From Candidatus Pacearchaeota archaeon (GTDB taxonomy: Archaea; Nanobdellota; Nanobdellia; Pacearchaeales; GW2011-AR1), in NCBI GenBank assembly GCA_041649295.1, contig JBAZNI010000001.1, positions 288,115 through 352,114 on the forward strand: 64,000 nt of DNA. The letters run 5' to 3'. A program made the translations under genes and the position numbers. Every line of letters begins with the position of its first letter. Position 1 is the stretch's first letter. The notes beneath the pieces are model-generated. The model saw only the letters and a list, made by a program, of their open reading frames with translations, had not been told where the DNA came from and ran no database searches. This document shows positions 3,625 to 56,067 of the stretch, piece by piece.

Positions 3625-4467
3625 TTGATGGAAAAAACTATTAATAACAAAACTGATAATAAGAAAAAAGCTGGAAGACCTAAGGGAGCTAAAAGTAAAC
3701 TTAATCTTCCAATAAGAAATATAGCCGACGCCATAGACTGGGCTCGGAAAGTGGATAATGAAGCCAATGGAAATGAATTTCATCCAGAGGATTTAGTAGA
3801 GTATATAGGTATAAACAAGGGATTTGTTAGCCCTGCATTATCAGTATTGCAAAAATTTGGGTTTATTGAAAAGGGCAGTTTTGGGTGGAAAATTAGTGAT
3901 TTAGGGATGAGGGTTATAAGCAATGAAAGAGAAGCAGTCAGAGAGGCTTTAGAAAGGGTTGATTTATATAGAGATTTGTTAAGAAGTTTTGGAGATAAGA
4001 ATGTAACCAAAACTATCATACTTAACTATCTAAAAACTAAATATAAAAAGGGGGAGAATACAGAGATAATTGCAGAAAAATATGCCGAAGCAGTTAGTTA
4101 TCTAAACTCCCTTGAAAAAGGAATAGGAAAACCGGCTACTAAAGAAGTAAATAAAATAATTGATAATAAGATTATAACTTTATTAAAATTAAAATATACT
4201 TTTTATCCAGATAAAAATTCAAAAAAAGAAATTTTAAATGAATTAATAACTGAATTTAATGATGATGAAGATGTTACTATAAAATCTTTAATATCTCAAA
4301 TTAAAGAGAATGAAGATAATGAAAGCATATTAAAAGTGCTTATAGACACCTTAATGAATAGTTTTTCTCAAAAATATCCAATTCTTAATATTGAAAAGAA
4401 AGTTAAAAAAGAGCAAAAGAAAGAAATAACTGAAAAATCACAAGAACATCATAGTCAATCTGATTGA
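3625..4467 (+). CDS. Hypothetical protein, basic N-terminus (KKKAGRPKGAKSK), possible winged-helix DNA binder
   Basis: Long ORF with coding-like composition; no family recognised. Confidence 0.5.
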   Translation: MMEKTINNKTDNKKKAGRPKGAKSKLNLPIRNIADAIDWARKVDNEANGNEFHPEDLVEYIGINKGFVSPALSVLQKFGFIEKGSFGWKISDLGMRVISNEREAVREALERVDLYRDLLRSFGDKNVTKTIILNYLKTKYKKGENTEIIAEKYAEAVSYLNSLEKGIGKPATKEVNKIIDNKIITLLKLKYTFYPDKNSKKEILNELITEFNDDEDVTIKSLISQIKENEDNESILKVLIDTLMNSFSQKYPILNIEKKVKKEQKKEITEKSQEHHSQSD

Positions 4468-4675
4468 TAAAACGGGAGAACATTTAGGGGTTGCTTGTTT
4501 TGTATTCAAGTTAATCCCTAAATGCGTTTTTTAAATATTATATTATCTTTAAGAATTACTACTTTTTAAATGTTTTTCATATTTTTTTAACCATAAAAAG
4601 TCCCTCTAACTTAACAATGTATGGAGGTTAAAAACCCTGGATGATGTTGAGAAAATCTGGCAATATCAACTCCAA

Positions 4676-4850
4676 GGGTTAATGTTAGAGACAATATGTT
4701 ATGTTGCGGGTATATTAGTTATCAGCACACATCACTTTCTTGCATTAAATAATTGTTTAAAGCGAAAAACATGCCGGAGGCTGTTTTGAGCTGTTCTTCT
4801 CTTTGGGTTAATAGTCCATATCTTCCCTAGGGTTTATGGGGGTTGGGGGT
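4676..4850. repeat. Mosaic repeat copy (left-TIR-like GGGTTAATGTTAGAGACAAT at 4676-4695, X module at 4805-4850)
   Basis: The TIR-like 18-mer is identical, in reverse complement, to 40442-40459. The X module aligns with 63872-63920. Confidence 0.65.
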
Positions 4851-11451: not shown

Positions 11452-12216
11452 TTAGTATTTTCTTTCTTTTCGATTTCTTCTTATCTCTTTTGTTTGAGGA
11501 TCTCTTACCATCTCATCTTCAAATCCTCTAGCTAAAAGTTCTTCATAAGCTTCCCAAATTCCGTGTGAAAATAAATCAGGTTGAAAAACCATATCTCCTT
11601 TTTCACCATAAATTCCGCATCTTTGATAATTTGCAACAAGAGTTGTTACAATATCTCTTTGATCAAAACATTTTGAAAAACCTGTTTTATGATAAGTTCT
11701 CATTGGAACTCTTGGGGAAGTGACTGTTATATTAACTTCGGGCCATGCAGCTAGACAAGAATATTTGTCTCTTCTTTCTGCACTAGGCATGTGAACAGAT
11801 ATTATTGAGTTAACATCAAGTCCAAGTTTTTGAACCATTCTTTTAGAATGTTCATAATTTGCTTTTGTATGTGTTGAGTTAGGTTCAATTAAAATTTTTT
11901 CTCTTGGGACACCCATTTTAACTGCAACATCTGCGAGCATTTCAGATTCATTAGCATATTGTGTTGAACCATCTATTCTATCCCAGAATCTTCCCCCCTT
12001 TCCTCCGCCAGTAAACATTAAGTATGGCAGTCTGCTCCATCCATTTAAAAAAAGTCTAGCTCCTTCTTCTGCAGGCAAAGTATCAATAGAACCAAGAACC
12101 AAAATCAAATCAGCGGGTTTTAATCTTTCATTTAACTGAAAATAATCCCATAATCCTTGTGCAATATCTAAATCATCTTCTGTTGGTTGCACTCTAATCC
12201 CGCTTTGATTTATCAT
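11452..12216 (-). CDS. DUF218/YdcF-like protein
   Basis: ADLILVLGS..LPAEEGARL..FTGGGKGG..ESEMLADVAVKMGVP..ILIEPNSTHT. Paralog of 56776-57534. Confidence 0.65.
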   Translation of the reverse strand: MINQSGIRVQPTEDDLDIAQGLWDYFQLNERLKPADLILVLGSIDTLPAEEGARLFLNGWSRLPYLMFTGGGKGGRFWDRIDGSTQYANESEMLADVAVKMGVPREKILIEPNSTHTKANYEHSKRMVQKLGLDVNSIISVHMPSAERRDKYSCLAAWPEVNITVTSPRVPMRTYHKTGFSKCFDQRDIVTTLVANYQRCGIYGEKGDMVFQPDLFSHGIWEAYEELLARGFEDEMVRDPQTKEIRRNRKERKY

Positions 12217-12346
12217 TATACTCTCTCATTAAAATTATTTATAAAGATTTATGCATAGTTATATATAATATTATATTATGATAAAATGCCTGTTCTTATA
12301 ATGAATAAGAAGCATGTTTTTACCTTAACTAAGATATATCTCGGAA

Positions 12347-33980: not shown

Positions 33981-34658
33981 TCAGAACAGCTTTTTCTGAG
34001 CGCCGTGCAACTTGTATTTTTTTATTGTGTCCCAGGATTCTCTAAATATGCCTTTGTCCTTGAATTTATCATAGTTGTCGTAAATGAATTTTCTCGTAAC
34101 TGGGTCGCTTGAATATCCAGAACCAAAATTAATTCCTATTTGTTTTTTTATTTTTTCTATTTCTGCATCTCGTGTTGTTTTTGCAACTATACTTGCAGCA
34201 GAGACAACAACATGATTTACATCAGCCTTGTGTTCGCAAACAAGCTCAATATTCCCGCGGGCCATTAAAAATTTCTCAACATAATCTTTCCAAGCAGGAA
34301 TATTAACAGAAGGGCAGTCAATTATCACCCCAATTTTTTCTTTTTTATCTTTTAATCTTTTAGCTATTTGATTAATTATTTGTGCAGACGCAACTGCTTC
34401 CCTTTGATTAAGATTTAACCTGTCTCCAGATTTATTGTCAATTTCATCAACAGAGATTTTTACACAGAAACTATCAATTACCCTTTCTTTTATTATTTTA
34501 GCAAGTTCTTCTCTTTTTTTAGGAAGAAGTGTTTTTGAATCTCTTATCCCAAGTTTTACAAATTGCTTTTCTGTTTCTTTATCAATTAAAACACCTGCCA
34601 AAACCATTGGGCCGATAACTGGCCCTCTGCCAGCATCATCAATTCCAAGGATTAACAT
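33981..34658 (-). CDS. rnhB: Ribonuclease HII
   Basis: LGIDDAGRGPVIGPMV at the N-terminus, DSK, and a SAASIVAK-type motif. Confidence 0.9.
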   Translation of the reverse strand: MLILGIDDAGRGPVIGPMVLAGVLIDKETEKQFVKLGIRDSKTLLPKKREELAKIIKERVIDSFCVKISVDEIDNKSGDRLNLNQREAVASAQIINQIAKRLKDKKEKIGVIIDCPSVNIPAWKDYVEKFLMARGNIELVCEHKADVNHVVVSAASIVAKTTRDAEIEKIKKQIGINFGSGYSSDPVTRKFIYDNYDKFKDKGIFRESWDTIKKYKLHGAQKKLF

Positions 34659-34692
34659 GCCAAGTTAAACTAAATCAGGTATAAAAATGTTT

Positions 34693-35790
34693 TTAAAAAA
34701 TACTTTCTTGCGGTTTTCCGTCATCAACTTGCTCTTCATGCTCCCAAGGAAAGCAATCATCTTCATCCAACATTTTTTCTTTTTCTTTTTTTTGAGTTAT
34801 TCTTGAAGTATTGTCTGGAAGATAATTTCTATCCCCTACAGGAAGGTCTGATTTAGAAAAGAGAGGAAGCAATTCATCTTGCACTTCTAATCCTTCAATC
34901 AATTTTTCTTCAAGCAGTTCTCTATGTTTTTCAACCCAATCGCAATAGTTTCTATGAGAAATAAACCATAATGGAAAAGAATGAACTCGCTGGTTATTTA
35001 CCACCAATCCTCGAACCTTTCGTCTTTCAAAGTTGTAATCATCTGGGCAAAGACCAATACTTTCAACAGTTGCTTTTGGGTCTACCATTAAATCATTTAA
35101 AAATGTCCCTGAAATACTTCTTACATGTCTTCTTGCATAGCCCCCAGAATTAGGATCTCTCCTTATTTCTGAATAACAGTATTCATTAAGCAAATACTTA
35201 TTTGTTGCAGTTGGATTAATGTAAAATTGCAACATAATTGAAAAAGGAGCATGAATCGCATATAGTACTCCTTTTCTTGCTTCATGTAAAAATTGATTTT
35301 GAGTAATCCCCCTATTTTTCATTTTTGTAACTTTATGCCTAAAAAGAACAAAGTAAATTTTAGGAAATGGCCGCTTGTTATCATAAATCTGCCACTGCCT
35401 CATTTTTTCCATTTGCTCCCTTATTAATTTTAATTGATCTCTTTGTACACATGATTTTGTTTCATAGTAAATTCTCTTTCTATGGTCTGAGACATCTGGT
35501 TGAAGTGAACTTCTGCCCCCCTTTAACTTAAACATTCTACCCTGATGAAGATATCCTCCAAAGATAGCTGCAGTAAGATATTCGAAAAATGAACCGCTAT
35601 AACTAGAAATATCTGGTTTTGGCTCTTTTAATGGAAATAAAAATTCTAATTGAGAATCCCCCTCAAATGGGATATTAATGCACTTCTTTGCAATAGGCTG
35701 ATATATGGTGCCATTAAATTCATTTCTTAACCATTTGCTAAATTCATCATACCCCCTCCAACTTAAATTAAGATTCAACCTGCTTTTCAT
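34693..35790 (-). CDS. Hypothetical protein with possible PD-(D/E)XK core
   Basis: LQPDVSD..KRIYYETKS resembles PD..ExK; nothing else was recognised. Confidence 0.35.
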   Translation of the reverse strand: MKSRLNLNLSWRGYDEFSKWLRNEFNGTIYQPIAKKCINIPFEGDSQLEFLFPLKEPKPDISSYSGSFFEYLTAAIFGGYLHQGRMFKLKGGRSSLQPDVSDHRKRIYYETKSCVQRDQLKLIREQMEKMRQWQIYDNKRPFPKIYFVLFRHKVTKMKNRGITQNQFLHEARKGVLYAIHAPFSIMLQFYINPTATNKYLLNEYCYSEIRRDPNSGGYARRHVRSISGTFLNDLMVDPKATVESIGLCPDDYNFERRKVRGLVVNNQRVHSFPLWFISHRNYCDWVEKHRELLEEKLIEGLEVQDELLPLFSKSDLPVGDRNYLPDNTSRITQKKEKEKMLDEDDCFPWEHEEQVDDGKPQESIF

Positions 35791-35883
35791 AAGCTAAGAT
35801 AAATTAAATGCTTTATAAAAATTATATAGATAAGAAGTATATTTTAGAAGACTTTAAAAACAGAATAATCTTCGAATTTCCAT

Positions 35884-35959
35884 AGCAGAGTGGAGGAGCC
35901 TGGAGTCCTCGCAGGGCCCATAACCCTGAGATCGCGCGGTTCAAATCCCGCCTCTGCTA
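35884..35959 (+). tRNA. tRNA-Met (CAU), initiator-like, with irregular T stem
   Basis: Has an A1:U72 pair, GGG/CCC closing the anticodon stem, and loop CCCAUAA. The T stem pairs (GCG[C]GG / CCCGC) only if one C is bulged. Confidence 0.6.
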
Positions 35960-36142
35960 TTTACTTAATCTGCGGGATTTTCAAATAGTTAATTTCGCAA
36001 GAAAATAACTTGCCAAAATTGCCTGCAATTTTTAGCACCCGCCTCTGCTATTTACTTAATCTGCGGGATTTTCAAATAGTTAATTTCGCAAGAAAATAAC
36101 TTGCCAAAATTGCCTGCAATTTTTAGCACCCGCCTCTGCTAT
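35947..36142. repeat. 91-bp tandem repeat (2 full units plus 14 nt), each unit starting with the tRNA-Met 3' end CCCGCCTCTGCTAT
   Basis: Units start at 35947, 36038 and 36129 and are identical by eye. Confidence 0.9.
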
Positions 36143-36166
36143 TTTTTATTTTTAGGGTTAAGAAAA

Positions 36167-36313
36167 TTAAATTTTTATTCCAGAATCTTTGACGTCTTTT
36201 GAAGCTTGGTCAAATTCTCCATTTTGAAGACAATCAAAGCAAGTATGGATAGAACCATCTTTATCTTTAACAATTCCAGAGCCTTTACATTTTGGACAAT
36301 TTTTGTTAGCCAT
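36167..36313 (-). CDS. 48-aa zinc-ribbon protein (CPKCKGSG ... CFDC)
   Basis: Not in the ORF track because it is under 60 aa. Hand translation gives MANKNCPKCKGSGIVKDKDGSIHTCFDCLQNGEFDQASKDVKDSGIKI. Confidence 0.45.
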   Translation of the reverse strand: MANKNCPKCKGSGIVKDKDGSIHTCFDCLQNGEFDQASKDVKDSGIKI

Positions 36314-36385
36314 TTTATCAAACTTATTAAGAATATAAGATTATTTGGTATTTATAGATTTATGGGGGGTATTAACTAAAGAAGG

Positions 36386-36874
36386 TTATACGCCCAGAAT
36401 TATATTTGTAAGTTGAGAAGGATTATACTCCCCTCTCACCCCTATTGGAAAGGAATCATAAGATTCTGCAACTTTTGAATCTAAAAATGAATTAAGAATT
36501 TGAGCATGTGTTTGGCATGGTAATTTTCTAACTAATTTGCCTCTTGAATCAGAATGGTATATCCATCTAACAGGGGGCTCTAGTTTTTTTCCACTTTCAA
36601 AATAAGTTGACTTTAGATGGTATATTCCAGGAGGAATTGGATTTTTAACTGTATCTTCATCATCAGATAATCTCTTTGCAACTTCTGTATCAATTAAGAA
36701 AGGCACTTCAGACAGAATTTTTCTTCTATGAGGATCATCCATAAAATACCATGCTTTTTCTTTAACATTAAAAACTAAATTTTGTGGCAACCCGCAAATA
36801 TGGAGTTCATGCATATTAGGATTATTTTCTTCAATTTGTTTTTTTAACCATTTTTTAGATTTTCTTATTGAAAC
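36386..36874 (-). CDS. Hypothetical protein
   Basis: The ORF runs to 36910. The internal ATG (MVSIRKSKK) is preferred. No family recognised. Confidence 0.45.
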   Translation of the reverse strand, partial: VSIRKSKKWLKKQIEENNPNMHELHICGLPQNLVFNVKEKAWYFMDDPHRRKILSEVPFLIDTEVAKRLSDDEDTVKNPIPPGIYHLKSTYFESGKKLEPPVRWIYHSDSRGKLVRKLPCQTHAQILNSFLDSKVAESYDSFPIGVRGEYNPSQLTNIILGV

Positions 36875-37044
36875 CATACTTAAAATATACAATAAACTGT
36901 ATAAAAACAAATGTATAATAAATAATATAAAAGGTTTAACTTAGAGGGAGTAGTGATTTTATTGTTTAACAGATGCCTGACGGCGACACTGAAACCCAAT
37001 AAAAAGTTATACAATCAGAAGAATTACAATTAACATAGAGAAAA

Positions 37045-37503
37045 TTAACTTGTTCGCCAACCCTTATCATCTCTTTGCCAAATAAAAGGATTTTTATTTT
37101 CACCTTTAAATTCAAAAACTTTTATTAAAACCGAACCTGGAATAAATCCATCATTGCAACAATCTGGAAGTGCAAGTTGAACTGTTTCACAAGCTCCAAA
37201 GTCTTCGCTATTTTCTATAAATGGATGTTCCATATATTCCCTAACATACCATAAACTTGAGTTAAGGACCTCTCTTTTAACCAAATTAGCTACAACATTA
37301 GGGAAGATATCTGAACCAGCCAAGGCATAATATTCTGCATTAATATCATCTGATGCAGTATAGGCATATCTTCTAGCAGAATCAATTTTTCTTAAAGTTA
37401 AATATTTGAGCTCTTTGTCCAACCTTGCAAGTGAGGGGACATTTTCTTTTAATAACAAGTCAGTTGCCTCTAAAACCTTCTTTACTAATAGTTCGTTTTT
37501 CAT
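37045..37503 (-). CDS. Hypothetical protein
   Basis: 152-aa ORF; no family recognised. Confidence 0.45.
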   Translation of the reverse strand: MKNELLVKKVLEATDLLLKENVPSLARLDKELKYLTLRKIDSARRYAYTASDDINAEYYALAGSDIFPNVVANLVKREVLNSSLWYVREYMEHPFIENSEDFGACETVQLALPDCCNDGFIPGSVLIKVFEFKGENKNPFIWQRDDKGWRTS

Positions 37504-37574
37504 AGTCGGGTAATAGTATTTGTATTTTTAAACTTTCCTATTAATATGTAACTTAGAAGTAATTACAAAAATAT

Positions 37575-37714
37575 CGCCGACACTGGGAATCGAACCCAGG
37601 AACCCCGAAGGGCCGAGATGTTTGTGTTATATCCTCTTAAAGGAAATGTCGTAAGAAGAACCATAGGTTCTTTTTACTTAGCAATCTCGTGCTCTACCAC
37701 TGAGCGATGTCGGC
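37575..37714 (-). tRNA. tRNA-Ser (GCU) with 59-nt intron at 37/38
   Basis: Acceptor GCCGACA/TGTCGGC, D arm GCTC-AGTGGTA-GAGC, anticodon stem CGAGA/TCTCG with loop UUGCUA|A. It has a long variable arm (CCC-TTCG-GGG) and T arm CTGGG-TTCGATT-CCCAG. Confidence 0.85.
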
Positions 37715-37728
37715 TTGTTGGTTATGTT

Positions 37729-37809
37729 CGACATCGCGAAGGAACTGCCTTCAAAATGCAAATTTTGAATGGGACAGAAATTTCCTGAATTTCTGTAAGC
37801 GATGTCGGC
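37729..37809. ncRNA. Structured element: 9-bp closing stem around two perfect hairpins, ending in a 12-nt copy of the tRNA-Ser 5' end
   Basis: CGACATCGC (37729-37737) pairs with GCGATGTCG (37799-37807). The hairpins are TTCAAAAT-GCAA-ATTTTGAA (37750-37769) and ACAGAAATT-TCCTG-AATTTCTGT (37774-37796). The strand is undetermined. Confidence 0.4.
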
Positions 37810-37940
37810 ATATAAAAATAACAGAAATTAACAGAATTTAAAGGTTTGTGTTTTTGTTTTTGTAAGTGGGTTAAAAACACTATAATATTTTTTTTACCTA
37901 TGGCTAATTTTATATACAAATTTTAAGGCTATTTTAATTA

Positions 37941-38043
37941 TGGCCCTGAAGAGAATCGAACTCCTGACTACTCGGCTTTTAGTATTTATGATTTTATTCG
38001 CTATACTTGTAAACGAGTCGTTTTGCCACTAGACTACAGGGCC
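37941..38043 (-). tRNA. tRNA-Val (UAC) with 32-nt intron at 37/38
   Basis: Acceptor GGCCCTG/CAGGGCC, D loop AGT-GGCA, anticodon stem ACTCG/CGAGT with loop UUUACA|C. The intron forms hBHBh' (GTAT/ATAC, bulge CA|A, TTTA/TAAA, bulge AG|C). There is one C12-A23 mismatch. Confidence 0.8.
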
Positions 38044-38130
38044 GTATAAAAAGCAGTTAACCCTATCTTAAAAATGTTTTGCTATAACAACCTTTTTAAA
38101 ATCTATGGTTTTTAAAATACAGACTAAAAT

Positions 38131-38268
38131 GCGCTGCTAGTTTATCGGTAGAATACATCCTTGCCAATGTGGAAGAACCAAGGTTTTCCTAACACTACCT
38201 CTCCTTATGAAGGAAAAATGAGAGAAAGCAAAAAGGATGTGAGCCGGGTTCAATTCCCGGGTGGCGCA
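38131..38268 (+). tRNA. tRNA-Gly (GCC) with about 66-nt intron at 37/38
   Basis: Acceptor GCGCTGC/GTGGCGC (two G-U pairs), anticodon stem CATCC/GGATG with loop UUGCCA|A, and T arm CCGGG-TTCAATT-CCCGG. Confidence 0.8.
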
Positions 38269-38296
38269 TATAATCATTAGATTAAGTGAAATCTTA

Positions 38297-38349
38297 GCGA
38301 CGCACGGCACTAAGAATTTTTCCTGAATTCTTTCAGCCGGGTGGCGCAT
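38297..38349. other. Long imperfect hairpin ending in a 13-nt copy of the tRNA-Gly 3' end
   Basis: GCGACGCACGGC (38297-38308) pairs with GCCGGGTGGCGC (38336-47) at 10 of 12 positions. The inner hairpin is AAGAATT-TTTCCTG-AATTCTT (38312-32). CCGGGTGGCGCAT at 38337-49 is identical to 38257-69. Confidence 0.6.
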
Positions 38350-38379
38350 TTATTTTATCAAAATTAATCTGTCTAATAG

Positions 38380-38766
38380 ATGATTTTTAAGTTGCTGAAT
38401 GGAATAAGCAATACTGAAAACAACTTAAGGGAAGCAATTGCAGGAGAACATCACGAGTGCGCAAGAATGTACCCTGAAATGGAAAAAGAAGCTGAAGCAG
38501 AAGGAAATAAATATGCTGCAAAATTATTCAAAGAAATTTCTGAAGTAGAAGAACAGCATAGAAATAGATATAAAAAACTTCTTGAGATGCTAAAAAATGG
38601 AACACTTTACAAAAGAGATAAACCAATAAGATGGAAATGTTCAAAATGCGGTTATATACATGTTGGAACTGAACCTCCATTAATATGCCCTTGCTGTAAG
38701 CATGAAAGAAAATACTATGAACCGGAATGCATGTGCTTTGAAGAAGGATATGAATGCTGTAATTAA
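38380..38766 (+). pseudogene. Rubrerythrin, C-terminal half only (second ferritin-like helix pair plus rubredoxin domain)
   Basis: KLLNG..NLREAIAGEHHE..EAEGNKYAAKLFKEISEVEEQH plus CSKCGY..CPCC. The first E..ExxH half is absent and in-frame stops lie directly upstream. It may still be expressed as a short form. Confidence 0.55.
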
Positions 38767-38768
38767 AA

Positions 38769-38897
38769 ATGACAAAAAAACAAATTTATAAATGTAAAAT
38801 TTGTGGAAACATAGTCGAAGTTCTGCACGAAGGCATAGGAGCATTAGTGTGCTGCGGGCAACCAATAAAACTCCAAGTTGAAAAAAACAAAAGATGA
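38769..38897 (+). CDS. Desulforedoxin-like domain protein (42 aa)
   Basis: Hand translation gives [42 protein letters not shown], which matches the Dx / N-terminal desulfoferrodoxin pattern. No SOR domain follows. Confidence 0.6.
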
Positions 38898-38972: not shown

Positions 38973-39266
38973 ATGGAATCGTTGTTTATATTAAGAAAAA
39001 AAGAAAATATTTTGCGTTATCCGAGATTAGATACTATCCTAATGGTTGAAGAATTTATTAAAGAACATGATGGGGAATTTAAAAAACGAGCACTATGGGA
39101 ATCGCTCCCTAAAAAAACAATGTATCAAACTTTCTCTCTAATCATTGACTATCTGCTTGTTTCTGGAAAAATATCTGTAGATTCGGAAGGTAAAATCGGA
39201 TGGATTTTTTATCCAAAAGAATCTGAGAATAGGCTAAAAAAAGCCCATTTATTTTGGAAACCTTAA
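38973..39266 (+). CDS. Putative antitoxin/partner of the RelE-like ORF
   Basis: Overlaps the downstream RelE-like ORF by 13 nt. The ATG at 38973 (MESLFIL) is preferred. Confidence 0.4.
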   Translation: MESLFILRKKENILRYPRLDTILMVEEFIKEHDGEFKKRALWESLPKKTMYQTFSLIIDYLLVSGKISVDSEGKIGWIFYPKESENRLKKAHLFWKP

Positions 39267-39559
39267 AAATGAAATCAGAAATTCAATTTATTAATGAAAA
39301 ATTATTAAACTCATTTGAAAAACTTTCTAATAGCAATTATGAAGACAAAGAACTTGTAAAATTTATAAAGCGTGCATTTGAAGACATTAAAGAAAATCCT
39401 TTTTGTGGCATACAGACTCCTAAAAAACAAATTCTTAAAATATACCTTCAAAAACATCAGATAAAAAACTTATGGAAATATAATCTGCCAAATGCATGGA
39501 AACTACTCTACTCTATAAAAAGTGGAAAAATTTTTATCACCCAAATTACTATTAAATAA
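39254..39559 (+). CDS. RelE/ParE-like toxin paralog (C-terminus shorter than the copy at 1-231)
   Basis: NPFCGIQTPKKQILKIYLQKHQIKNLWKYNLPNAWKLLYS aligns with the window-start fragment. It lacks the ..DHKHYERRF end. Confidence 0.5.
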   Translation: METLKMKSEIQFINEKLLNSFEKLSNSNYEDKELVKFIKRAFEDIKENPFCGIQTPKKQILKIYLQKHQIKNLWKYNLPNAWKLLYSIKSGKIFITQITIK

Positions 39560-50210: not shown

Positions 50211-51272
50211 ATGCAATATAAAGATATTGATGTAAGAAAAGAGATTCTTAGAAAGTTTTTAAAAAATAATCCTAATGCGACTTATAAGCAAATAAAAAGG
50301 GAAATTCATACCAAAGTTGAAAAAGTGTACACTGGCGGGATGAAAGATGCATTTAAAGATGCAGGTATTAAAAATCCAAGGAATTTTGAGAGAAAGAATA
50401 GAGAGGAAAGAGAAAAAATTATAATTAATTATATAAAGAAACATCCCGGAGTTGGGGCACATACAATTGCAAAGGATACAAAAATAAATCCATCTAGTAT
50501 TTTTAATAGTATAAGAGAGGCTTATGTGTTTGCAGGGATTACATACCCTCGGATAAGAATTAATAAATCAAAAACAGAAAAAAAGAAACAAATAATGTTT
50601 TTGGTTAAAAATAACCCTTTAATAACTGCTAGAGAAATAAAAGAATTAAGCGGAATAAATTTATATAAAGTATTTAAAAACTTTAATGAAGTTTACAAGG
50701 AGTTAGAAATAAAAGATATTTGCAATAAAAATAAAGAAAGAATTAAAAAGCAAAACCAAGTAATTGAATTTATTAAAAATAATCCTAGAGCAACACAAAG
50801 AGAGATAAATCGCACTTGTAAGACACATGTTCAAGAACTATTTAATGGTGGGATATTTGAAGCTTATAAAAATGCACAGATTCTTTTTCCATATGAGAGA
50901 TTAAAAATCTATGGTATTGGAATTAAATCTGTAAGGGAGGATTCAAAAAGATTTGAAGATGAAATTGCCTTAAAATTATCTGGCTATGGCAATGTTAATA
51001 GACTGGTAAGAATAAAGAAGGGTGTTGCAGATATAGTCTTCGAAAGAAAAGATAAAAAAGCAATTGTAGAGGTAAAAAATTATTTAAAAAAAGAGGTTTC
51101 TTTTTCACAGATTAACCAGTTAAACAGTTATTTAAATGATTTTAACTGCAATCTTGGGTTGCTTATATGCAATGTTAAGCCAAAGAAGGATAAGTTTATA
51201 ATTGGTAAAAATAGAATATTTGTGTTAGATAAAGACGAACTTGACAGAGTGCCTTATTTAATGGAACTGTAG
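50211..51272 (+). CDS. Four tandem HTH-like modules fused to a C-terminal PD-(D/E)XK (Mrr-cat-like) nuclease domain
   Basis: The modules begin LKNNPNATYKQIKREI.., IKKHPGVGAHTIAKDT.., VKNNPLITAREIKELS.. and IKNNPRATQREINRTC... The C-terminus is FEDEIALKL..GVADIVFERKDKKAIVEVKNY. Confidence 0.5.
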   Translation: MQYKDIDVRKEILRKFLKNNPNATYKQIKREIHTKVEKVYTGGMKDAFKDAGIKNPRNFERKNREEREKIIINYIKKHPGVGAHTIAKDTKINPSSIFNSIREAYVFAGITYPRIRINKSKTEKKKQIMFLVKNNPLITAREIKELSGINLYKVFKNFNEVYKELEIKDICNKNKERIKKQNQVIEFIKNNPRATQREINRTCKTHVQELFNGGIFEAYKNAQILFPYERLKIYGIGIKSVREDSKRFEDEIALKLSGYGNVNRLVRIKKGVADIVFERKDKKAIVEVKNYLKKEVSFSQINQLNSYLNDFNCNLGLLICNVKPKKDKFIIGKNRIFVLDKDELDRVPYLMEL

Positions 51273-51334
51273 TTTAATGGTTAGAATTTTGGTCTCCAGA
51301 ACCAACGATGGGGGTTCGATTCCCTCCAGTTCCA
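51263..51334 (+). tRNA. tRNA-Trp (CCA), no intron
   Basis: Acceptor GGAACTG/CAGTTCC, anticodon stem TTGGT/ACCAA with loop CUCCAGA, and T arm GGGGG-TTCGATT-CCCTC. The 5' 10 nt overlap the preceding CDS end. Confidence 0.85.
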
Positions 51335-55479: not shown

Positions 55480-56043
55480 ATGCCCAGAAATCATTTTTTG
55501 TTCAGAAAAGAAAACCAGCTTAAAAAATCAGATAAAAGTATCAAACAAAACTGGGATGAAAAAATAATTTCCCTCTGCAGTTTAATAAACAAAAGAAAAG
55601 AGTATTATACTACATCATCCTGTTCAGGAAGAGTTTTACTGCTTAAACAAAGCAAGGAGAAAAGAGATGATTTATTTATTAAAGTTTGGCATGACAAAAT
55701 AAATTTTGATGAATTAAAAAATGAGTTAAATAAAATAAAAACAAAAGAACTAGTTTATTTTAAGCAGGAACCTTGTATCCTGCATGTTTCTTGTTCTAGT
55801 TTAGAAAAAGCTCAGGAAATTCATGATTTGGCAAAATTAGCTGGATGGAAAAGATGCGGGATAATAGCAACTAAAAAAAGGATTGTTGTTGAGTTAAACG
55901 CAACTGAAAAGCTTGAATTCCCAATTTTTTATAAAGGAAGGGTATTAGTTGATGATAATTTCCTGAAATTAGTTGTAAGTGAAGCAAATAAAAAATTAGG
56001 GAGTTCGTGGGGAAAAATTATAAATCTAGAAAAAGGATTATAA
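55480..56043 (+). CDS. taw3: tRNA wyosine-derivative methyltransferase Taw3/TYW3-like
   Basis: YYTTSSCSGRVLLL motif; length about 190 aa. Confidence 0.7.
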   Translation: MPRNHFLFRKENQLKKSDKSIKQNWDEKIISLCSLINKRKEYYTTSSCSGRVLLLKQSKEKRDDLFIKVWHDKINFDELKNELNKIKTKELVYFKQEPCILHVSCSSLEKAQEIHDLAKLAGWKRCGIIATKKRIVVELNATEKLEFPIFYKGRVLVDDNFLKLVVSEANKKLGSSWGKIINLEKGL

Positions 56044-56067
56044 ACTTAGCACCCATTTCTGCCATAT

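Follow-up and report, generated by a model that had tools for sequence, protein, structure and literature searches.

Hairpin-forming inserts bracketed by duplicated tRNA gene ends in a Pacearchaeota genome

Three tRNA genes of a Candidatus Pacearchaeota archaeon (DPANN), those for initiator methionine (iMet), glycine (Gly) and serine with the anticodon GCT (Ser(GCT)), each have an exact 12–16 nt duplicate of their own terminus 80–95 bp outside the gene, and a hairpin of 7–10 bp lies 1–5 nt ahead of each copied terminus. The genes are located in 64 kb of AT-rich archaeal DNA (GC ca. 31%) from a metagenome-assembled genome (MAG; ENA contig k141_1326485), and this whole stretch is referred to as the window. 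An insertional origin of the three modules is well supported, because the terminator or promoter stands at the distal copy, a filled and an empty site can be compared, many independent inserts occur in relatives and a neighbouring rubrerythrin gene is truncated. It is quite possible, if somewhat short of probable, that the modules are old insertions of short, non-autonomous, hairpin-forming segments into tRNA gene ends, accompanied by target duplication, co-transcribed with the tRNA and folded upon themselves. tRNA genes are classic landing sites for mobile DNA, usually for a kilobase-sized element with an integrase.

Rfam identifies five tRNA genes in the window, iMet, Ser(GCT), Val(TAC), Gly(GCC) and Trp:

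35884–35959, plus strand: tRNA-iMet, no intron (Rfam, 47.3 bits; ARAGORN)
37575–37714, minus strand: tRNA-Ser(GCT), 61 nt intron (Rfam, 47.3 bits)
37941–38043, minus strand: tRNA-Val(TAC), 33 nt intron (Rfam)
38131–38268, plus strand: tRNA-Gly(GCC), 69 nt intron (Rfam, 39.4 bits)
51263–51334, plus strand: tRNA-Trp (Rfam)

A preliminary description of this DNA had reported the duplications at the iMet, Gly and Ser genes, and all of them, together with their coordinates, are reproduced by a repeat search and the Rfam tRNA calls. Among direct repeats of at least 11 nt with a GC content of at least 50% and a spacing of 40–160 nt, those at iMet, Gly and Ser are the only ones in the window, where first-order Markov simulations predict 0.07. 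Three of the ten tRNA ends in the window have a copy with 0–1 mismatch within 300 nt, the remaining seven being matched with 4–6 mismatches. The strongest CCTG-loop hairpins of the window are those at 36015–36032, 36106–36123, 37774–37796 and 38312–38332, while weaker ones occur at about chance frequency (14 observed, 8.6 expected), and motif searches of the 64 kb place module hairpins at the three tRNA ends only. A candidate fourth module at 55956–56066 was rejected, its hairpin being inside an open reading frame (ORF) and its TTAGCACCC similarity at chance level. The Ser and Gly duplications also survive re-assembly, on which the preliminary description had made its claim depend: in Logan unitigs of run SRR8542065 (L002 and L004), an assembly of separate provenance, these two modules are identical to the base, and at the iMet tandem the unitigs stop at the very point where branching is unavoidable in a graph with k=31. 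The modules are neither a product of chance nor an assembly artefact.

At the iMet gene, CCCGCCTCTGCTATTT occurs at 35947, 36038 and 36129, and the perfect 91 bp tandem with a third start at 36129 that had been described is found again by Tandem Repeats Finder (2.2 copies, 100% identity). Its parts are listed here, with related loci cited by L numbers as in the rest of the text:

35947–35959 and T35960, plus strand: proximal copy of the iMet block, the last 13 nt of the tRNA and a T
35961–36037, plus strand: insert unit 1, 77 nt (sequence, repeats and fold; homologous inserts in L076, L079 and L085)
36038–36051, plus strand: terminus copy 2, CCCGCCTCTGCTAT (repeat search)
36052–36128, plus strand: insert unit 2, identical to unit 1, with its hairpin at 36106–36123
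36129–36153, plus strand: terminus copy 3 (36129–36142), leading into the oligo-T terminator TTTTTTATTTTT; this junction is the end of Logan unitig L002

Unit 1 contains a T-arm-like, inverted T-loop piece, GCGGGATTTTCAAAT (35972–35986), then a GCAAG..CTTGC hairpin, and finally the A/T hairpin AAAATTG-CCTG-CAATTTT (36015–36032) followed by TAGCA (36033–36037). As other lineages have a single unit, the tandem is best read as a secondary amplification that arose by slippage between the repeats on its flanks.

The Ser module lies at the opposite end of its gene, the 5' end of the minus-strand tRNA, where AGCGATGTCGGC is found at 37703 and 37798, 95 bp apart:

37714–37703, minus strand: proximal copy, tRNA positions 1–12, the 5' end of tRNA-Ser
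37715–37797, no strand assigned: insert, 83 nt (sequence, repeats and fold; related module in L076)
37798–37809, minus strand: distal copy of tRNA positions 1–12 (14 nt if one mismatch is allowed)
37836–37842, minus strand: TTTAAAT box, the putative ancestral Ser promoter, its first base 33 nt upstream of the distal copy

A strand complementary to the copied terminus is present in the insert at 37728–37737 and pairs with 37799–37808 through nine perfect nucleotides, a closing stem that had been proposed before and is recovered by folding. Two hairpins lie between these strands, TTCAAAAT-GCAA-ATTTTGAA at 37750–37769 and ACAGAAATT-TCCTG-AATTTCTGT at 37774–37796.

The Gly module carries CCGGGTGGCGCAT at 38257 and 38337, with a spacing of 80 bp:

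38257–38269, plus strand: proximal copy, the end of tRNA-Gly
38270–38336, plus strand: insert, 67 nt (sequence and fold; homologues in L011 and L029)
38337–38356, plus strand: distal copy CCGGGTGGCGCAT, then the T-run TTTATTTT (sequence and repeat search)

A small hairpin in the insert is followed by GCGACGCACGGC (38297–38308), which is complementary to the tRNA terminus, and by the hairpin AAGAATT-TTTCCTG-AATTCTT at 38312–38332. Folding closes the module, as had likewise been proposed, by pairing 38297–38308 with 38336–38347 (10 of 12 pairs), and the resulting 12 bp stem amounts to an acceptor/T stack of 7+5 bp, in which the 3' strand and the discriminator are those of the tRNA itself.

The placement of transcription signals is informative at all three genes. 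The oligo-T runs at 36142–36153 and 38349–38356 adjoin the distal copies only, and not the ends of the iMet and Gly tRNAs. In about 25 tRNA genes of the clade, from the window and the related loci, a TTTAAA-type box begins 29–36 nt (mode ca. 31) upstream of tRNA position 1, and a survey of sequence and spacing found no TATA box at promoter distance from the window tRNA-Ser. At the Ser genes of the window, L081–83 and L091/93, the TTTAAA-type box stands at the clade's distance from the distal copy. Because the terminator (iMet, Gly) or the TATA box (Ser) adjoins the distal copy, the segments are taken to have been inserted into pre-existing gene ends. The promoter spacing of the clade's tRNA genes is itself leaderless-like and reminiscent of the RNase P-free Nanoarchaeum equitans.

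Damage to a neighbouring gene points the same way, and the truncation of rubrerythrin at the module region that the preliminary description had noticed is corroborated by a Pfam match and by alignment with a homologue:

38380–38766, plus strand: rubrerythrin ORF, N-terminally truncated, adjoining the Gly module (Pfam match to positions 79–137 of 137)

The ORF aligns with residues 59–185 of a homologue of 191 amino acids (aa) directly downstream of tRNA-Gly in L005, and lacks ca. 58 N-terminal residues, including the first metal-binding helix pair; the absent part is nowhere in the 64 kb window. L005 preserves the order tRNA-Gly, rubrerythrin with a gene of full length (191 aa).

Related loci came from three sources: a metagenome scan with the 3' 28-mer of tRNA-Gly, which gave 16 loci; a genome scan for a doubled Gly terminus, which gave L029 (Pacearchaeota SO_2017_GW1_270); and RNase HII homologues, which gave the syntenic iMet/Ser loci L074–L093. 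Apart from L029, its sole relevant match, the genome scan returned mostly bacterial or repetitive chance and tandem matches. This search of relatives for further modules and empty sites, which had been suggested with the first observation, yielded some 20 modules of comparable kind, located at the iMet, Ser, Gly and Val genes of ca. 25 related Pacearchaeota/Nanoarchaeota loci, as well as a filled/empty pair:

iMet modules: 6 of 8 lineages (window, L076, L079, L085/86, L074, L091/93)
Ser(GCT) modules: 5 of 8 lineages (5' end in the window, L076, L081–83 and L091/93; 3' end in L078 and L091/93)
Gly modules: about 5 of 13 lineages (window, L011, L029 with two in series, L012, L009)
Val modules: 3 of 8 lineages (L016, L009, L020)

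In the filled/empty pair, the flank past the distal copy of L012 is the flank that follows straight after the tRNA in L014. Near-identical tRNA exons stand without a Ser module in L085, and identical tRNA-Gly exons without a Gly module in L010. In L009 a 5.1 kb block lies between tRNA-Gly and a 14 nt copy, beyond which comes a flank seen in five module-free relatives. That block (6700–11825 of L009) is missing from closely related contigs and holds seven co-oriented housekeeping-like genes, described by sequence inspection as methyltransferase, SpoU-like, flavoprotein/aldolase-like, nucleotidyltransferase, kinase-like and NUDIX genes.

Across the survey the duplicated block measures mostly 10–27 nt, three cases standing apart with 18 nt (L016, Val 5' end), 49 nt (L020) and 61 nt (Ser of L076, with the promoter included). 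The commonest length is 12–16 nt, beginning just past the T-loop (position 61) or in the D-arm, and the inner boundary of the modules spans positions 54–62. Inserts are mostly 27–113 nt long, with larger ones of 161, 246, 560 and 5110 nt, and several copies occur in series in L029, L020 and the window iMet. Among the Val genes, L020 (637–1420) repeats the 49 nt 3' half of the tRNA twice with a 141 aa ORF between, and L016 (881–1160) has a 5' fragment (−4 to 14, then 13–29) split by 183 nt. In 128 kb from the related loci there are 23 GC-rich repeat pairs of short range; 12 fall on tRNA sequence, and nearly all others belong to tandem arrays of L074. These arrays, at 3900–4700 and 11900–12230 of this Nanoarchaeota MAG, are intergenic, with repeats of ca. 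120–240 bp, and one is broken by an N run.

The modules also persist between species. SO_2017_GW1_270 (L029 and L076; RNase HII 71% identical) has apparent orthologues of all three window modules. The 62 nt Gly core, from GCGAC(G/A)CACGGC through the hairpin to the distal copy, shows 1–4 differences among the window, L029 and L011, whose introns, spacers and flanks cannot be brought into alignment; the module-1 inserts measure 67, 70 and 73 nt. Between these three the sole stem change is G.U to A-U, the L029 hairpin is longer by one A-U pair, and the loops read TTTCCTG, TTTCTTG and CATACAGGGACAAAA. The iMet modules of the window, L076, L079 and L085 are built in a common order: first a T-loop piece, inverted or palindromic, then GTTGCCAAAA, then an A/T hairpin, and last TTTTTAGCA, directly against the copy; their loops differ (CCTG, TTTA, TAGAA, TT or similar). 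In the Ser modules of both the window and L076, the copy is followed by a hairpin, (T)CCC and another hairpin, and their first hairpins differ by a compensated A-T to G-C change, the loops on the tRNA strand being CAGGA and GAAA.

The preliminary description had defined the module by a hairpin with a YCCTG loop, and had held that relatives without any shared hairpin architecture would speak against it. Of this definition the stem stands and the loop does not. Orthologous hairpins keep their stem and their place by the distal copy and change their loop, so that YCCTG is not a defining feature; it was rejected as a signature also for its background frequency outside modules. The hairpin beside the distal copy is a real, recurrent feature.

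Read outward from the tRNA body, a typical module consists of the proximal copy, which is part of the tRNA, a spacer of 0–16 nt, a complementary segment, one or two hairpins, the distal copy and the original terminator or promoter. The complementary segment pairs with the tRNA's own T-loop region or with the copied terminus; it is GGATTTGAACC at iMet (L074, L076), GAATCGAACC at Ser (L091) and GAATTGAACCCG at Gly (L029), and in Gly module 1 a 12 nt strand complementary to the copied terminus. Because of this segment the insert as a whole folds shut into a long stem-loop, in which the spare tRNA sequence is sequestered, and 10 of 11 inserts fold better than shuffled sequences (z −2.3 to −4.7; window modules −2.3 to −4.1). 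The distal copy is in each lineage that lineage's own terminus (CCCGCCTCTGCTA, CCCGCCTCCGCTA, CCTTCCTCTGCTA), even where termini differ, with L079 as the exception.

Some sequences recur at the junctions irrespective of the tRNA. An A/T hairpin with TTTTTAGCA abuts the copy both at iMet (window, L076, L079, L085) and at Gly (L029, insert 2), TTTTTTAGTG takes the place of TTTTTAGCA at Ser-3' (L078), and GTGGTTTGTGTTT, i.e. G(G)TGGTTTGTGTTT, follows the inverted T-loop at iMet (L074) and Ser-3' (L091). Global similarity between inserts was discarded as evidence, showing no excess over AT-rich intergenic background, and only such junction-anchored matches were used for this reason. The A/T stem of the iMet hairpin is too slippery for covariation to be scored.

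These features would be accommodated by the following course of events. Non-coding, hairpin-forming DNA segments of ca. 45–100 nt would insert into the ends of existing tRNA genes, with the inner junction at or near the T-loop/T-stem boundary (ca. position 61) for 3' ends and at D-arm positions 10–14 for the 5' end. The block from the inner junction to the end of the transcription unit would be duplicated on either side of the insert, and because it ends up on both sides, the tRNA would be left intact and its terminator or promoter moved to the far side. The insert would presumably be co-transcribed, as a 3' trailer at iMet and Gly or a 5' leader at Ser, and removed by normal end processing. 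It could be tolerated through self-folding, in which the spare acceptor-strand or T-loop copy pairs with the complementary segment of the insert; being paired there, the spare copy would not compete for tRNA folding, and selection may have favoured inserts that are self-contained in this way.

Several observations weigh against such insertions. The Pfam lists contain no transposase, integrase, Cas1 or reverse transcriptase within 6–10 kb of any module, and no donor copy of any insert was found away from tRNA genes. Terminal inverted repeats are absent from the window inserts and present only in L012 (ca. 19 bp) and L016 (ca. 18 bp, imperfect). The duplication is not of constant length (mostly 10–27 nt, 49 nt in L020, 61 nt in L076), and similarity between inserts outside the anchored junctions does not exceed that of AT-rich intergenic segments. 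Module cores are conserved between species like tRNA exons, which could mean function rather than mobility. Lastly, many inserts contain an inverted copy of the target's T-loop, which simple cut-and-fill insertion does not predict.

The preliminary description had offered three origins, namely scars of excised elements, a miniature element targeting tRNA ends and a functional processing or terminator module. An insertional origin has gained support, and a miniature element, integrase scars and a secondary functional constraint are all left standing. A bolder and more doubtful proposal is that Pacearchaeota and Nanoarchaeota harbour a new class of miniature elements of ca. 50–100 nt, which home to tRNA gene ends, on the T-loop or D-arm side of the last 12–16 nt, and copy their target partly in inverted form by a nick-primed or Cas1-like mechanism so far not known from archaea. 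Insertion of such elements would be asymmetric, with a fairly precise inner junction and variable outer junction and duplication length, and in some cases, the Gly minihelix for example, the inserted copy may later have been kept on as a tRNA-like RNA.

Decay of integrative plasmids or viruses is an unlikely source. In this case a tyrosine-type integrase would have acted at a short tRNA core, the two copies would be attL and attR, and the deletion bias of these tiny genomes would have left stubs of the element's arms. Such scars are the textbook origin of tRNA fragments beside archaeal tRNA genes (PMC9897764, PMC3293823). Relatives have long duplications of attachment (att) site type (in L020 the 3' half of the tRNA, 49 nt; in L076 a 61 nt block that takes in the promoter), the 5.1 kb insertion of L009 is bounded by the same 14 nt Gly repeat, and copies occur serially in L029, L020 and the window iMet. 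An inner boundary near the T-loop with a variable outer one is likewise expected if an element rebuilds the tRNA end. However, there is no integrase in or beside any module (Pfam, 6–10 kb), nor among the ORFs of the 5.1 kb island as judged by sequence inspection, and no attP came out of five scans in which viral contigs were searched with junction sequences or with the 3' ends of tRNAs, DPANN plasmids and viruses being poorly sampled. The clustering of insert sizes at 27–113 nt, with Gly module 1 at 67, 70 and 73 nt, is unlike random deletions, and the same arm sequence stands beside different tRNA cores. Moreover, close direct repeats around a hairpin are expected to vanish quickly, yet the modules are shared between species.

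A primary RNA function of the modules is quite unlikely. They would be structured leaders or trailers that guide or protect tRNA end processing or termination, or would release small RNAs, and the Gly minihelix might be recognisable by RNase P, tRNase Z and the CCA-adding enzyme. Consistent with this are the 1–4 differences in the 62 nt Gly core of the window, L029 and L011 beside unalignable introns and flanks, the 12 bp Gly stem as an acceptor/T stack with the tRNA 3' strand and discriminator, the compensated A-T to G-C pair in the Ser hairpin between the window and L076, and the position of the modules within the transcription unit. In L079, too, the distal iMet copy is mutated solely in the loop of a TAGCA/TGCTA hairpin. 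On the other hand, the distribution is patchy, as L010 (identical tRNA-Gly exons) and L085 lack the Gly and Ser modules respectively, and architectures vary by tRNA, the minihelix being confined to the Gly module. The three-sequence Gly alignment (window, L029, L011) contains no double-sided covariation, and Rfam 15 matches only tRNAs over 35850–38420, both at the gathering threshold and at E-values up to 1. Oligo-T alone is enough for archaeal termination.

Break repair, or template switching during replication, at the palindromes of the T-arm and D-arm would involve no mobile element; this origin is improbable, although the inverted copies speak for it. Snap-back synthesis and template switches would generate direct and inverted copies of the tRNA end with filler between them. 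tRNA genes are highly transcribed, palindrome-rich sites, many inserts have at their start an inverted T-loop copy (GGATTTGAACC at iMet, GAATCGAACC at Ser, GAATTGAACCCG at Gly) and at their end a direct one, the complement of the copied terminus lies inside Gly module 1 and the window Ser insert, and the duplication length is variable. Against this, templated insertions are usually far shorter than the module inserts, target-independent junction-anchored sequences recur across tRNAs and genomes, and size and architecture remain similar over many independent events.

A non-canonical intron, in which the distal copy would be the true exon and the splicing endonuclease would remove the insert with the proximal copy, would fit the promoter (Ser) and terminators (iMet, Gly) adjoining the distal copies, the insert sizes, which match the tRNA introns of these genomes (33–97 nt), and the leaderless-like promoter spacing, but is highly improbable given that a register-constrained search found no bulge-helix-bulge at iMet or Ser, that the contiguous gene already codes a complete tRNA and that the L079 distal copy is degenerate. 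Bulge-helix-bulge scores at Gly, Val and L076 Ser were rejected, as they rest on self-complementary 4-mers (GCGC, CCGG) within the repeat.

The tRNA genes and their surroundings have further peculiarities. Their introns (37618–37680, 37976–38008 and 38167–38235 in the window, and that of L085 Ser) are long, 33–97 nt, and turn over fast; tRNA-Gly genes with identical exons have an intron in the window and none in L010, and the Ser introns of the window and L085 have the first ca. 20 nt in common. The 5' strand of the iMet T stem (window 35932–35951) has an extra bulged pyrimidine, GCG-c-GG being paired with CCCGC; this bulge (c or t) is present in five related lineages (L074, L076, L079, L081, L091) and absent in L085 (GGAGG/CCTTC). 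The iMet anticodon loop is CCCAUAA, i.e. with C at position 33.

A 365 aa ORF at 33981–35790 (minus strand) has no Pfam or PHROG match, but stands beside RNase HII in a conserved pair that is divergent from iMet in L074 and, by position and size, probably also in L078, L079 and L081. It shows by eye a candidate PD..(D/E)xK-like motif (QPDVSD...YETKS), and was rejected as a mobile-element gene on account of the conserved pairing in relatives. Between iMet and Ser (36167–37503, minus strand) lie three small ORFs, a 48 aa CxxC zinc-ribbon-like one and others of 163/174 aa and 152 aa, without significant Pfam or PHROG match, the 48 aa ORF reaching sub-threshold matches only. The ORFs at 36386–36910 and 37045–37503 have no Pfam or PHROG match, and a homologue search, made with 37045–37503 only, found none; the 152 aa protein is limited to this MAG. 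Beyond rubrerythrin, a 42 aa ORF (38769–38897) is the desulfoferrodoxin N-terminal domain alone, and a weak YoeB-like toxin ORF (39254–39559) is preceded by a small ORF that may be its antitoxin partner.

In one DPANN clade, about half of the iMet, Ser, Gly and Val genes that were sampled thus carry hairpin inserts of gene size or smaller with copies of the tRNA end as their bounds, at 3' and 5' ends, and some are kept across species. Were these miniature elements, they would represent a new form of tRNA-gene targeting in genomes thought nearly free of mobile DNA. As repair products they would mark tRNA arms as fragile palindromes, and as functional parts they would bring structured leaders and trailers into the tRNA maturation of archaea, and this in a lineage whose promoter spacing is otherwise leaderless-like. 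In practical terms, the modules account for places where unitigs break, for spurious fragments of tRNAs and for pseudogenes nearby in MAGs of this kind.

No paper on modules of this kind in DPANN archaea turned up in a limited literature search. Among described phenomena, the att-site duplication left at archaeal tRNA genes by integrative plasmids and viruses of the SSV/pNOB8 type and related ones comes closest (PMC9897764, PMC3293823). In both, a direct repeat of part of the tRNA brackets foreign DNA, the tRNA remains intact, serial repeats are possible and neighbouring genes can be damaged. Unlike att systems, the bracketed DNA of the modules is mostly 27–113 nt, non-coding and hairpin-shaped, with no integrase or attP found; the modules hit 5' as well as 3' ends, and the same flanking sequence occurs by different tRNA cores.

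Mechanistically, the closest analogue is casposon insertion, in which a Cas1-type casposase produces a 14–15 bp target duplication beside the tRNA T-loop palindrome, reuse of a site leads to arrays separated by the common duplication, and short mini-substrates integrate in vitro (PMC5137440, PMC4779613). Casposon duplications are of fixed length and lie mostly downstream of the tRNA, overlapping it by 4–5 bp, whereas those of the modules reach 12–13 nt into the tRNA and vary. A strict 14 bp duplication, as a casposase ruler would set it, fitted the first nine cases and was then broken by L074, L076, L091 and L020. Casposons further carry terminal inverted repeats, cas1 and polB, whereas the modules mostly lack inverted repeats, and neither cas1 nor polB appears, by the Pfam lists, in the bracketed DNA or among neighbouring genes within 6–10 kb.

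MITEs (miniature inverted-repeat transposable elements) resemble the modules in being small, AT-rich and non-coding, with long hairpins and direct-repeat flanks, and are often co-transcribed with neighbouring genes. MITEs, however, are bounded by defined terminal inverted repeats, make short target duplications of fixed length and are dispersed in many copies, whereas the modules have long duplications, all copies seen are at tRNA ends and inverted repeats occur in L012 and L016 only. tRNA-like minihelices are also known as processing signals, for example mascRNA at the 3' end of MALAT1. Unlike the iMet and Ser modules, which form no such minihelix, the Gly module is predicted to resemble it, folding into an acceptor/T-arm-like 12 bp stack with the tRNA 3' strand and discriminator.

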